Source: Candidatus Parcubacteria bacterium (GTDB lineage Bacteria; Patescibacteriota; Minisyncoccia; UBA6257; JAGOQP01). From it: a stretch of DNA of 64,000 bases. Numbering within the stretch: the first letter of the stretch is position 1; every line of letters starts with the position of its first letter. The notes under the pieces were generated by a model. The model saw only the letters and a list, made by a program, of their open reading frames with translations. It had not been told where the DNA came from and made no database searches. Location of the stretch: the NCBI GenBank assembly GCA_025999395.1, contig AP024682.1, forward strand, positions 2,105 to 66,104, in the 5' to 3' direction. Shown here one piece after another: positions 5,172 through 12,294 of the stretch. A program made the translations under genes and the position numbers.

Positions 5172-5286
5172 ATTCCCCGGCGAACCCTACTTTCCCCCAT
5201 AAAGGAGTATCATCGGGGTGCAGTGCTTTCACTTCCTAGTTCGGAATGGAATTAGGGTGGTTCACACTGCACTAAATCACCGGGAA
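5172..5286 (-). rRNA. rrf: 5S rRNA
   Basis: Reverse complement contains CCACCCTAATTCCATTCCGAACTAGGAAGTGAAAC, matching the conserved 5S helix/loop consensus. Terminal helix CCGG.../...CCGGGG. Confidence 0.7.
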
Positions 5287-5471
5287 ATCAATAGAGCCTT
5301 TGTTTTTACTTTGGGTAATTTTCTGCAAAGTGAAGGCAAAGCAGAGAAACTTAAAAGTCAAGATTAATTCGGGCTATTAGTACTCCTCGGCTAAAATCCT
5401 TACGGATCTTACACCTGGAGCCTATCAAGGTCGTCATCTTCGACCGCCCTAGGATGCCTAATCTTGGGGTG

Positions 5472-5504
<33 letters not shown>

Positions 5505-5630
5505 CTTCCGAACATAGCTACCCGGCGCTTCAGCTGGTGCCAAAGCCGGTAGACCAGAGGTTCGTTCAGCCCGGTCCTCTCGTACTAGGGCCAACTCCCC
5601 TCAAGCATCCAACGCCTGCAGCAGATAGAG

Positions 5631-5664
<34 letters not shown>

Positions 5665-6353
5665 GCGTACCACTTTAATTGGCGAACAGCCAAACGCTTG
5701 GGAGCTTCTCCACCCCCGCGCTGTGGTGAGCCGACATCGAGGTGCCGAGCGAGGTCGTCGATGTGGACTCTCGGACCTCACCAGCCTGTTATCCCCAGGG
5801 TAGCTTTTATCCGTTGTCTCCGGCCTTCCTATAAGGAGTCATCTTGTCTTGAATAAAACAAGATGACATTGCCGTCGGGTCACTAAGTTCTGCTTTCGCA
5901 TCGGCGCGACTTGTCAGTCTTGCCGTCAAGCCGGCTTGTGCCTTTACACGTCCAGCCCGATTTCCATCCGGGCTAAGCCGACCTTATAAACTCCTCCGTT
6001 ACTCTTTAGGAGGACAACGCCCCATTGAAACTGCCCGCCAGACACTGTCCCCTGACGTTTTTGCCGTCAAGGTTAGACTCTAAAACTTGGAAGGTGGGTG
6101 TTTCATTGGCGGCTCCATCCACCCCGAAAGGTGGACTTCAAAGCCTCCCCACTACGCTACGCATCCAAGCTCTAAAGCCAATATCAAGCTGCAGTAAAGC
6201 TCCTGGGGTCTTTTCGTCCCGCTGCAGGTACCCCGCGTCTTCACGGGAATCGCATTTTCACCGAGCTCATCCTCGAGACAGTTCTCCAGTCGTTACGCCA
6301 TTCGTGCGCTCCGGAACTTACCCGGAAAGGAATTGCGCTACCTTAGAACGGTT

Positions 6354-7107
6354 CACTTGTGTTATCGCTCCATTACCTTGGAGCTTCTCACGGTCGCCCG
6401 TGAGGTCGGACTATATCATTCCCACATATTGCGGGATCCGGCGTATAGTCTCTGAGGATTCAATTTACGAATCGAGATAGTCGGTTAATGAATATTTTCT
6501 TGTTCGCCCTTTTCCTTCGTTTAATTTTTCACGAAGAAGGAGAATTTTTTTAAACCCTTCTTCTGTTAAATGCTCTCCGCGAGCCATAAGCTTAACTATT
6601 TTTTTAAAGATAGAGAAATTTCTCACTTTCAATCGGGAACGGAATGAAAACTTCTCAAAGAAAGGAATTACTCTTTCGTAAAGCATTTTGTAATTCCTAA
6701 CCTCAAAGTAAGCTACTCCATCCTTTCTTTTCCTTAATCTTCCGGTTCCTAATGATTTTTTCAGAAGGATTAGATTGCTTATGTCTCGCTGAGAGACATT
6801 AAAACTTGGTTCGACTTTCCATTTTAGTTGATAATCAGAAACTTTTTTAAGAGAAACATTGAAGCTTCCCTCTCCATCAACAAAGCCTGCCAGATACCAA
6901 CCCACTTCCTGAGGAACTTTCTTTAGCCATTGATTTGAAGTTGTCTGATTCATAGTTGTGGTTACTTGTGATTCGTAAATTGTCTTTCCTGCGGATTGTC
7001 TCTCCACAAAGATTTTTACTGACACGATGACTAGTCGTGCCGAGTACTTTGCTTCAACGAGACTTTCCCGCATATAGCCGGATTTTATAACTACAGACCG
7101 TTATCCT
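6354..7107 (-). mobile_element. group I intron inserted in 23S rRNA domain IV (near E. coli positions ~1917-1931), encoding a LAGLIDADG homing endonuclease
   Basis: Exon sequence ...GGTAACTAT | AACCGTTCTAAGGTAGCG rejoins to the conserved 23S ...AACTATAACGGTCCTAAGGTAGCG. 5' exon ends in U and the intron ends in G (omega G at 6354). The internal ORF carries LAGFVDGEGSF. Confidence 0.7.
6465..7073 (-). CDS. LAGLIDADG homing endonuclease (intron-encoded; likely true start at internal Met ~6953)
   Basis: Single LAGLIDADG motif WYLAGFVDGEGSFNVSL. Size ~160 aa from the internal Met MNQTTSNQ. Located inside 23S rRNA. Confidence 0.75.
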   Translation of the reverse strand: MRESLVEAKYSARLVIVSVKIFVERQSAGKTIYESQVTTTMNQTTSNQWLKKVPQEVGWYLAGFVDGEGSFNVSLKKVSDYQLKWKVEPSFNVSQRDISNLILLKKSLGTGRLRKRKDGVAYFEVRNYKMLYERVIPFFEKFSFRSRLKVRNFSIFKKIVKLMARGEHLTEEGFKKILLLREKLNEGKGRTRKYSLTDYLDS

Positions 7108-8677
7108 ATAGTTACCGCTGACATTGACGAGGGCTTCGGCCGCTCAGCCGTAAGACAACTTGCGTTCTCTTACGACCGGCAGCTTTAACCTTCTCGCATC
7201 GGTCAGGCGTCACCCCCTATACATCCTCTTACGAGTTCGCAGGGAGCTGTGTTTTTAGTAAACAGTCGCCAGAGAGACTTTAGCTGCGGCCTTGCTTACG
7301 CAAGGCAGGCCTTATCCCGAAGTTACGGCCGCTTTTTTGCCGAGTTCCTTGAGGATGACTCACTCGTTCCCCTTAGGCTTCTCGCCTCACCCACCAGTGT
7401 CGGTTTACGGTACGGGCCTAAGTTCTTTATCCTTAGAAGTTTTTCTCGGAAGCTGGCTCGAGGGACTTCCCTTTGATAAACGCCGGGTCGTCTCTACTCT
7501 GGGACTCGCCATTGAAGGCAGTGTTCCGGATTTCCCAAGAACACGTCCTCGATCAAGAACGCCAAACCATTAAGGCGCTCCCTCTACTCAACTTCGTCAC
7601 TCCATCGGGAAGAACTTAGGGGGCCGGAATATTAACCGGCTGTCCATCAGCTTCGGCTTTCGCCATTGCCTTAGGTCCCGCCTAACCCTTCGCTGATTTC
7701 CATTGCGAAGGAAACCTTGGATTTTCGGGGGTCCGAGTTCGCATCGGACTTGTGGTTACTCATGCCAACATTTTCTCTTCCAAACGCTCCACTCCGCCTC
7801 GCGGCTAGAGCTTCATCGCTGTTTGGAATGCTCTCCTACCCCCATCTCATCAAAGGCAAGAACGCTGACTTACGCCGACCTAACGCTAAACCACACAGAA
7901 AAATAAAAAATTTGTTCCGCGTTAGTCTGCGTTAAGCCTGTGTCTTTCCGCGATCTTGTCTCTGACAAGATGAGTCGTGTCTTCGGTAGTGTGCTTAGCC
8001 CCGGTAAATTTTCGGCGCAGCCTGCCATCTAGTAGTGAGTTGTTACACACTCTTTAAAGGATGGCTACCTCTAAGCCAACCTCCTACCTGTCTCTGGCAG
8101 ACCACTACCTTTCACACTTAGCACACATTTAGGGACCTTAGACGACGATCTGGGCTGTTCCCCTCGCGACTATGGAGCTTAGCCCCCACAGTCTAACTGC
8201 CCGAGCTTTACGTTAGAGTATTCGGAGTTTGACTGAGAAGCCGAGCTTTCGCCCTTTACTTCTCAACCAGTGGCTCTACCCCTCTAACGTTTTTCCCGGA
8301 CGCCAGCCCGAAAGCTGTTTCGGAGAGAACCAGCTATTACCAGGTTCGATTAGCTTTTCACTCCTTACCTCAGGTCATCCGAAGGTTTTGCACAACCCAC
8401 CGGTTCGGGCCTCCTCTTGTCTTTCGACAAGATTCACCCTGCCCAAGGTAAGCTCACCTGGCTTCGGGTCTTATGCGCACCGCGTCATCTTGCTAAAAGC
8501 AAGATGGGCGCCCTTTTAAGACTCGCTTTCGCTCTGCCTCCGCTCCGTAGAGCTTAGACACGCGATGCACATAAACTCGTTGGCTCATTCTTCAATAGGC
8601 ACACCGTCACCCTTGCGGGCTCCGGTTCCTTGTAGGTGTGTGGTTTCAGGTTCTATTTCACCGGCCTCACCGGCCTG

Positions 8678-8714
<37 letters not shown>

Positions 8715-9390
8715 ATCACTAAACGTATTTAGCCTTTCCTGATAGTTCAGGAAGATTCCCTCAGGGCGTTCGTTCCCCGAGGTACTCAAGGATGTATACT
8801 AGGAAGTTCTTTTGTTTTCGCCTACGGGACTTTCACCCTCTTTGGTTCTGCTTCCCAGCAGATTCGGCTAACAAAAGAATTTGTAACTTCCCCTTATCGC
8901 CACAAGCGGATTGATGCCAAGCTTTAGCACCAATCCGCGAGAGCGACAGCGTATACACCTTACAACCCCTTCTTTGTACTAAAAAGTACAAAGAAGGTTT
9001 GGGCTCTTCCCTTTTCGCTCGCCGCTACTGGGGGAATAACGATTGTTCTCTTTTCCTCCGCTTACTGAGATGTTTCACTTCAGCGGGTTTGCCTCTGCCA
9101 ACTTGAGATTGGCAGATAACTGCGGTTTACGCAGTTGGGTTGCCCCATTCGGAGATCCCCGGATCACAGGTTGCTACGCACCTCCCCGAGGCTTATCGCA
9201 GCTACGCCACGTCCTTCATCGCCGTTTAGTGTCGAGGCATCCACCACACACCCTTAACCTAATCTTGACTTTTCAAGTCCTCTGCTTTTACCTTCACTTC
9301 GCAGAAAACTACCTTTATACCTGCGCTCTTCAATTTTCAAGGTTCTAAGATACTTAGTAGATTCTTTACCCTTGGGCAGATCTCCTGAAA

Positions 9391-9424
9391 TAAAAATCCG
9401 CCTTCAAGGGCGGATAAGCGAACT
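9391..9424 (-). terminator. rho-independent terminator (minus strand), upstream of the 23S promoter region
   Basis: Minus-strand ATCCGCCCTTGAAGGCGGAT hairpin followed by TTTTTATTT. Confidence 0.45.
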
Positions 9425-9639
9425 GCAAAAAGAAGCGCTTTTTCGCTCATCCGCTTTGGAAATTTACTAAGTATCTCATAACAATAAGGATTATAAGAAA
9501 AACTTGTAAAGATTGTCAAGGCTTACTTAAATAAACTCTTCTTCACCCTAATTTTAATCAGCAAAAACAAAAAATTGGCTTAAAAGATTTTTTCATTGGC
9601 TGAAGGTGTTTTTATTAAAAAAATCTTTAAAACGCCTCT

Positions 9640-10205
9640 TTAGAAATCTTTCTCAATATTTTTAAAAAGAATCCAAAAAATCAAAGTCAATATTAAGGAA
9701 ACAAAAAAGCCCAATAAGAAAATATCTTTTAATTGAAGGGAAGGAGTAATAAATTCAGTTTTAAAATCATTTGAATTATTCGTGCTAGTTTCTTCTTTGA
9801 GAATCAAAGAATTGATTTTATTCTCAGAAAAAATCAGCCAATGATCTTTCTTTTAAAGGAAGAAAAATCACTTCTCCGCTCAAAGGATTTTTTCTCACCA
9901 AAATATCCTCGCCCACTCTTTCTTGATAAACCAATTTATCAACCAAATTATTTTTTTTCATCATAAAGAAAAAGAGTTTCTTTAGTGTTATTTAAAGAAA
10001 TTTTTGTAGTTGAATAATTTAATATCAAAGAGCCATAAGGAGAAAGAGTTTGATCATTAATCAAAAAACTTTTTCCAGAAGCATCCGCAACTCGCCAGCC
10101 ATCAAGAGAAATTTGAGAATTCGATTGATTAGAAATTTTTATGTATTCCCCCTGAGCGTCGTCTCCTTTGGGATTAGGAAAAAACTTCCGAGATAAAAAC
10201 CATAG
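9640..10205 (-). pseudogene. lamin-tail-domain (LTD) protein gene, broken into three frames (shift in an A8 run near 9963-9970)
   Basis: Own translation: MVFISEVFPNPKGDDAQGEYIKISNQSNSQISLDGWRVADASGKSFLINDQTL...TKETLFLYDEKK, then a +1 frame NNLVDKLVYQERVGEDILVRKNPLSGEVIFLPLKERSLADFF, then another frame ending in the TM helix IFLLGFFVSLILTLIFWILF. Confidence 0.4.
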
Positions 10206-10258
10206 CTCTATTTTCTAAAGCCGATTTTTTCTAAAAAATTTCTTTTCGTCCCATATTT

Positions 10259-12294
<2,036 letters not shown>

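Follow-up and report, generated by a model that had tools for sequence, protein, structure and literature searches.

The 64-kb stretch of DNA analysed here (64,000 nucleotides (nt) of contig AP024682.1, hereafter the window) contains a 23S ribosomal RNA (rRNA) gene that is interrupted by an insertion of 754 nt at positions 6354-7107. We conclude with high confidence that this insertion belongs to the L1917 lineage of mobile group I introns and carries its own homing endonuclease gene, and that its host is a bacterium of the Paceibacterota, within the candidate phyla radiation (CPR). The exact boundaries of the insertion, a complete group I fold whose helices are conserved by compensatory changes among related introns, and an intact LAGLIDADG gene in the P6 loop (P stands for the paired regions of the intron and J for the joining regions between them) are the evidence for this reading.

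The insertion within the gene for 23S rRNA

The 23S rRNA gene lies on the minus strand at 5357-9267 and measures 3911 nt including the intron. The Rfam model LSU_rRNA_bacteria matches it along the full model (1-2925) with 2400 bits. All the parts of the intron described below are on the same minus strand, and the strands of the helices are given in the direction of the RNA, from higher to lower positions. In order to set the boundaries of the insertion, the window gene was aligned globally to Escherichia coli rrlH (L001:60-2963) with MAFFT. The alignment contains one insertion of 754 nt, from 7107 down to 6354, directly after the equivalent of E. coli U1917. This site, L1917, belongs to the loop of helix 69 in domain IV. 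A first-pass annotation made from the sequence alone had already proposed an insert of this length at 6354-7107, in domain IV around E. coli position 1917 and ending in G, with no strand given. The alignment agrees with it to the base: the first base of the intron is 7107 and the last one is G6354, the omega-G.

On the RNA strand, the 5' junction reads ...GCGGUAACUAU/AGGAUAACGGUCUGUAGUUAU... and the 3' junction reads ...GAUAACACAAGUG/AACCGUUCUAAGGUAGCG, where the slash marks the limit between exon and intron (intron start AGGAUAACGG, intron end CACAAGUG). When the insert is taken out, helix 69 is restored, with a loop AACUAUA identical to that of E. coli and a fully paired stem AGCGGU/ACCGUU. 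The junction of the ligated exons then reads GGUAACUAU-AACCGUUC, and the duplex of the intron-less ribosomal DNA (rDNA) around the junction is ...CAGCGGTAACTATAACCGTTCTAAGGTAGCG.... Furthermore, an independent Logan assembly (SRR15510186, L042) is 99.93% identical to positions 5787-8714 of the window and has both junctions alike, therefore the insert is not an artefact of the assembly.

The fold of the intron RNA

The helices were assigned on the minus strand and each pair was checked by script in window coordinates. P1 (7115-7108 / 7094-7087) is formed by the exon strand GUAACUAU and the internal guide sequence GUAGUUAU, which is its 3' strand (7087-7094), and all of its 8 pairs were verified. 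At the 5' splice site, U7108, the equivalent of E. coli U1917, and G7094 form a U·G wobble. P10 (7102-7097 / 6352-6347) has 6 verified base pairs (bp) with the guide AACGGU, and reaches 7 bp if U7095-A6353 is counted across the bulged C7096, in which case the guide spans 7095-7102. The start of the 3' exon, AACCGUU (6347-6353), would thereby be used twice, in P10 before ligation and as the 3' strand of helix 69 afterwards, and it is fully paired in both.

Regarding the core, P3 (7083-7077 / 6442-6436) has the 5' strand AUCCGGC and is pseudoknotted with P7 (6450-6444 / 6415-6409). The P4-P5 domain (6990-7072) consists of P4 (7072-7067 / 6995-6990), P5 (7063-7059 / 7002-6998) and, beside a conserved A-rich strand, a branched extension of P5 formed by P5a (7051-7047 / 7011-7007) and P5b (7041-7035 / 7027-7021). 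P6 (6989-6987 / 6458-6456) is followed by P6a (6982-6970 / 6473-6461), a perfect stem of 13 bp that encloses the open reading frame (ORF) of the intron. The 3' half of the catalytic core, at 6409-6461, comprises the 3' strand of P6, J6/7, P7, the 3' strand of P3, P8 (6435-6430 / 6426-6421) and J8/7. It is followed by P9 (6404-6398 / 6393-6387), which is closed by a GCGA tetraloop, and by P9.1 (6384-6379 / 6372-6367). The pairs of P4, P5, P6, P8 and P9.1 were verified like those of P1, and no P2 was found in the fold of the window intron. When the ORF was deleted and the loop of P6 was replaced by GAAA, the minimum-free-energy fold of this core recovered all the helices outside the pseudoknot, namely P3-P6a, P8, P9 and P9.1. 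The Rfam model of group I introns, RF00028, matched the window intron in two fragments with the same helix assignments, the 3' half at 6387-6542 (26.0 bits, E 2e-4) and the 5' half at 6934-7072 (16.7 bits).

The fold was then compared among homologous introns. Using the enzyme gene as query we retrieved 39 loci from species-representative genomes, and in nearly all of them the 5' exon ends in ...TAACTAT and the guide GTAGTT follows within a few bases. The structural alignment (A1) contains 20 ORF-deleted cores of homologous introns with their exon flanks, and GTAGTT is invariant in it. The loci L007, L009, L026, L027 and L038 were left out of it on account of wrongly placed intron boundaries. 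P5a/b, P6a, P8 and P9.1 stood outside the column-wise count of covariation, because MAFFT leaves these variable helices out of register.

Standard pairs were found in 92.4% of the cells of the alignment, versus 26-41% when the partners were slid by 1-3 columns, and the covariation score was not matched by any of 500 shuffles. Double (compensatory) changes occurred at 16 pairs, among them five of the seven pairs of P3, five of the seven of P9, three of the five of P5 and one pair of P4 (UA/GC at 11:9). P4 and P9 were paired in 100% of the cases and P7 in 96%. P7 was nearly invariant, and since neither P7 nor P6 shows variation, no information on covariation comes from these two helices. All 20 introns keep the U·G of the splice site unchanged. 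The guide of P10 and the 3' exon co-vary among the homologues (GC/AU at one pair), and, by duplex folding of each sequence, the stem which encloses the ORF (P6a) recurs in most homologues with unrelated sequences. The P1-P9 architecture expected of a group I intron is present, with all its helices paired and with covariation across the 20 introns, and at the sequence level we consider its group I identity as established.

As a separate observation, the exon alignment shows two L1917 introns, those of L010 (2740-2752) and L016 (3560-3571), that end in A instead of the canonical G (...GGCA/AATCG and ...GACA/AATCG).

The homing endonuclease gene in the P6 loop

The loop of P6 contains a LAGLIDADG homing endonuclease gene on the minus strand (6465-6953), 489 nt long and starting at ATG 6953, with a predicted product of 162 amino acids (aa). 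Its stop codon UAA (6467-6465) is located inside the 3' strand of P6a. Many relatives have an ORF that continues as far as J6/7 and P7, whereby their proteins end in the recurrent peptide ESSETIR.

The mechanically delimited ORF is longer, 6465-7073 on the minus strand (202 aa), because it includes an in-frame extension of 40 codons from ATG 7073 (6954-7073) that overlaps the P4-P6 region of the ribozyme. We rejected a product of 202 aa, as the additional 40 residues correspond to P4-P6 and have no counterpart in the homologues. The N-termini of the homologues align at ATG 6953 (M41 of the 202-aa ORF), so the product is taken to have 162 aa, and the extension is probably not translated as a part of the enzyme. 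This is also a pitfall for annotation: gene callers extend the ORF to the ATG in J3/4-P4, and the public protein P0001 was annotated in this way.

The Pfam family LAGLIDADG_1 (PF00961) matched the 202-aa ORF as one domain at residues 61-160, with 66.7 bits (cut-off 23.1, E 3.8e-18). The protein has a single motif, LAGFVDGEG (L21-G29) within LAGFVDGEGSF, whose acidic residue E28 is invariant across the family. A single-motif LAGLIDADG protein of about 160 aa was what the earlier annotation had read from the sequence, and the Pfam match and the length of 162 aa bear this out. The gene is intact and of full length, and it keeps all the 35 invariant columns of an alignment of 29 homologues. A sequence search against the PDB gave 91 sequences at E<=0.01, the best one at 2.5e-34, over residues 19-149.

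Regarding selection, the rate of nonsynonymous changes (dN) against the relatives was 0.24-0.40 and that of synonymous changes (dS) was saturated; a proper dN/dS is not computable from these values, as dS is saturated for most pairs. Such a low dN together with a saturated dS indicates long-term purifying selection on the enzyme gene. The GC content of the ORF is 35.4%, versus 35.5% for the genome average and 52.5% for the rRNA exons. No second copy of the intron or of the enzyme gene was found within the 64-kb window.

Proposed mechanism and alternative explanations

From these features we propose the following course of events. Its splicing, dimerisation, cleavage and homing steps are inferred by analogy with characterised introns and enzymes of these two kinds, and, for dimerisation and cleavage, also with I-ShaI (PMC11270868). 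The 23S precursor would be transcribed together with the intron, which would then be removed by two transesterifications, initiated by guanosine and guided by P1 and P10. The guide GUAGUUAU would pair with the end of the exon, GUAACUAU, to form P1 and set U1917 in the U·G wobble, and the 5' splice site would be attacked by a free guanosine that sits in the pocket of P7. P10 (AACGGU with ACCGUU) would then align the 3' exon while the terminal G6354 occupies the guanosine site, and the ligation of the exons would restore helix 69, with the stem AGCGGU/ACCGUU and the loop AACUAUA. The ORF of the P6 loop would be translated into a single-motif LAGLIDADG protein of 162 aa acting as a homodimer. The dimer would cut intron-less 23S rDNA around the sequence that codes for helix 69, and repair of the break from the intron-bearing copy would spread the intron, that is, homing. 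The coding sequence of helix 69, AGCGGT...ACCGTT, is a natural partial inverted repeat and may be well suited to a homodimer. On the evidence of the sequence, all the parts that this course needs are present, intact and under selection. The compact enzyme of 162 aa may have an uncharacterised specificity for the helix-69 coding sequence.

Several observations weigh against a functional mobile intron. The two RF00028 fragments of the window copy (26.0 and 16.7 bits) are under the gathering score of 50, which happens because the ORF of 489 nt splits the model; the introns without ORF at the same site exceed this score (57.4 bits in L012 and 64.6 bits in L007), and the ORF-less introns of L007 and L010 have 64% and 61% identity to the window core. 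In the comparison with the Rfam group I model which the first-pass annotation had proposed, the ORF-less homologues pass the threshold and the two halves of the window copy stay under it. In addition, no obvious Shine-Dalgarno sequence precedes ATG 6953, as judged by reading the sequence, and L042 has eight A where the window has seven (A8 versus A7 at 6545-6551), a frameshift that replaces the last 27 residues of the protein (P0001). This A8 variant may be a real allele, with the gene decaying in some members of the population, or it may be an error of assembly in the homopolymer. A start codon without a clear ribosome-binding site and a frameshifted variant in a near-identical assembly would both fit a working ribozyme whose enzyme gene is decaying or is kept only as a maturase, so that the element is effectively immobile. 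The ORF-less L1917 introns of L007, L010 and L012, which show that the gene was lost in some lineages, and the maturase activity reported for the LAGLIDADG protein of a Thermotoga 23S intron (PMC3984707) would fit it as well. Nevertheless, we regard this explanation as unlikely: the window ORF is not truncated and has retained E28 and all the other invariant residues of the family, its dN is far under the saturated dS, and the frameshift lies in a homopolymer, where it may be an assembly error.

The remaining point against our reading is a precedent. The title of Everett et al. 1999, as cited in PMC11270868, refers to an unspliced group I intron in the chlamydial 23S rRNA. The window insert could likewise be retained in the mature 23S rRNA, or be excised by an RNase with no ligation and leave a fragmented 23S, as intervening sequences do, and further long hairpins, of the kind seen in intervening sequences, are inserted in this same 23S gene. 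However, the catalytic core is complete and conserved, and so are the U·G of the splice site, P10 and the terminal G, with compensatory changes, which is to be expected only of a fold that selection maintains. Moreover, the site is the loop of helix 69, a universally conserved and essential element. Without the insert this loop is AACUAUA, exactly the E. coli sequence, and according to the introduction of PMC11270868 the rRNA insertions of CPR bacteria are removed from the transcripts. Thus, we consider an absence of splicing very improbable. The chance that the insertion is a chimera of the metagenome assembly, or a fortuitous resemblance to an intron, is practically negligible. The difference in GC content between the ORF and the rRNA exons is the only hint in that direction, and the GC content of the ORF matches the genome average. 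The contig assembled independently from another sequencing run, with identical junctions, excludes a chimera, and this architecture is found at the very same nucleotide in dozens of genomes.

Relation to known introns and enzymes

The survey of rRNA insertions in CPR genomes by Tsurumaki et al. 2024 in J Bacteriol (PMC11270868) names position 1917 as 23IS6 and counts it among those positions at which LAGLIDADG_1 is the predominant kind of gene and the flanks are group-I-like. The window intron shares with 23IS6 the radiation, the position, the group-I-like flanks and the single-domain LAGLIDADG_1 ORF, and there is no difference in kind between them. Our scan likewise met this element in many genome bins of CPR bacteria. 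The statement of the first-pass annotation that rRNA introns with homing endonucleases are known in CPR bacteria agrees with this survey, in which 1917 with LAGLIDADG_1 is listed as common, and the window intron is another member of an already catalogued class. In the same survey, I-ShaI, from a CPR bacterium of the Shapirobacteria, was shown to dimerise and to cleave its insertion site, and it is the only enzyme of this kind from CPR that has been tested biochemically (PMC11270868). Compared by description, I-ShaI resembles the window protein in that it is a LAGLIDADG_1 enzyme of one domain, encoded in the middle part of a 23S insertion that is group-I-like, and differs from it in the site, which is the neighbouring 23IS7 and not 23IS6.

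Outside CPR, Haugen et al. 2007 (PMC1995217) described L1917 introns in Synechococcus sp. C9 (743 nt, with an enzyme of 181 aa) and in Thermotoga subterranea (774 nt, with an enzyme of 168 aa). In both of them P2 is missing, P5 is complex, the core is IC1-like and a single-motif LAGLIDADG gene starts from P6 (PMC1995217). Again compared by description, the site, the similar size, the single-motif gene starting in P6, the absence of P2, the complex P5 and the IC1-like core are common to them and to the window intron, and the differences are only the host lineage and the end of the ORF. The ORF of Synechococcus C9 continues through P7, P3 and P8 into P9, whereas the window ORF stops in the P6a stem. 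This early stop is shared by only some CPR homologues; the others reach J6/7-P7 and end in ...ESSETIR.

Among enzymes of solved structure, the I-SmaMI/I-OnuI family is related to the window protein by sequence homology, with the halves of I-SmaMI matching at E 2.5e-34. These best-scoring relatives are two-domain monomers of fungal mitochondria, whereas the window protein is predicted to have one domain. The single-domain solved relatives were 5gkk (E 1.3e-19), I-Vdi141I (3e54, 1.6e-15) and I-CeuI (2ex5, 8.9e-15). I-CeuI, from a chloroplast 23S intron of Chlamydomonas, has a single motif, works as a homodimer and has its target in 23S rDNA, in the helix-69 region. A bacterial intron at L1917 with no endonuclease gene is reportedly found in Coxiella burnetii. 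The title of Raghavan et al. 2007, as cited in PMC11270868, places group I introns of C. burnetii within this same short part of the 23S gene, and the likeness, as far as this title goes, is that of group I introns in the 23S rRNA of an obligate host-associated bacterium.

The window adds another intact LAGLIDADG enzyme of the single-domain type, with the universally conserved helix-69 region as its predicted target, and this enzyme could serve as a compact meganuclease scaffold. What is known of group I introns and of CPR biology is not changed by it, and its practical value is limited.

Host and distribution

The flanking genes point to a host within the Paceibacterota/Patescibacteria (CPR). 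The best named matches of the neighbouring valyl-tRNA synthetase (ValRS) all belonged to the Paceibacterota, to the Patescibacteria or Parcubacteria group, or to Giovannoni-, Wolfe- and Liptonbacteria, with 57-66% identity, and no exact copy of this ValRS is on record. The particular intron sequence of the window was absent from the species-representative genomes scanned. The closest of them was a metagenome-assembled genome (MAG) of Jorgensenbacteria, which has the nearest 23S gene among the retrieved loci (81% identity) and an enzyme 72% identical in protein sequence. A contig with a ValRS 99% identical to that of the window (L041) was also considered, but its sequence continues in the direction opposite to the rRNA operon and does not tell whether that strain has the intron.

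The enzyme family is large. It has 2,677 homologues at E<=1e-10, mostly in CPR genomes, and an intron at the same nucleotide contains the closest homologue in 35 of the 38 distinct loci that are related.

We also observed the CPR-type intron and its enzyme in MAGs that are titled Gammaproteobacteria, Pseudomonadales, Planctomycetia or Bdellovibrionales (L004, L019, L025, L027-L029, L032 and L040). These titles could reflect mis-binning or mislabelling of CPR contigs, or a real spread beyond CPR. Another such locus, L033, comes from the thermophile 'Candidatus Hydrothermus pacificus'.

A neighbouring intron and possible gene movement in related genomes

The window 23S gene has the L1917 intron only, with no intron at L1931. 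In three related loci from Parcubacteria-type genomes, L007, L010 and L012, the L1917 intron lacks an ORF (237, 248 and 452 nt respectively), and a gene 57-61% identical to the window enzyme is found in the P6 loop of an L1931 intron located 14 nt downstream (regions L007:2584-3650, L010:2504-3560 and L012:2299-3550). The other second-site LAGLIDADG genes of related 23S genes are only 26-39% identical to it. This pattern suggests that the endonuclease gene of these three loci moved between adjacent paralogous introns. As a more general account of the relatives, we put forward only tentatively that the gene can pass from one intron to the next without the ribozyme, or that the co-conversion of two introns is due to a single enzyme.

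Moreover, many related 23S genes apparently bear tandem L1917 and L1931 introns with an exon of 14 nt between them, to judge from a 3' exon ...CTAAGGT or ...CTATGGT that is followed by non-rRNA sequence. These apparent tandem loci are L005, L009, L014, L018, L019, L027, L029-L032, L034 and L036.

Other features of the rRNA region

A 5S rRNA gene (5174-5285; Rfam, 49.6 bits) follows downstream of the 23S gene. No 16S rRNA gene was found anywhere in the 64-kb window, therefore the 23S-5S pair is unlinked from the 16S gene. The region of about 1.1 kb upstream of the 23S gene (9268-10380) has no ORF of at least 80 aa.

The first-pass annotation had ascribed the length of the 23S gene, about 3.9 kb, to the intron. 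The length itself is right (3911 nt), but around 250 nt of the excess over E. coli are due to other hairpin insertions and not to the intron. A 23S gene of 3.9 kb, with an intron and several hairpin insertions, is worth taking into account when CPR genomes are annotated from their rRNA, when primers are designed and when reads are mapped.

These other segments lie within the 23S gene on the minus strand, at 7842-7973, 8874-8997, 5844-5876 and 8486-8506. In terms of the alignment they are 57+55 nt near E. coli positions 1164-1184, 80+27 nt at 272-289, 33 nt near 2395 and 21 nt at 653. Three of the segments were folded. Those at 7842-7973 and 8874-8997 form long, almost perfect hairpins (z = -8.0 and -7.4), and the segment of 33 nt forms a shorter one (z = -3.6). 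They look like helix extensions or intervening sequences of the RNase III type, not like introns.

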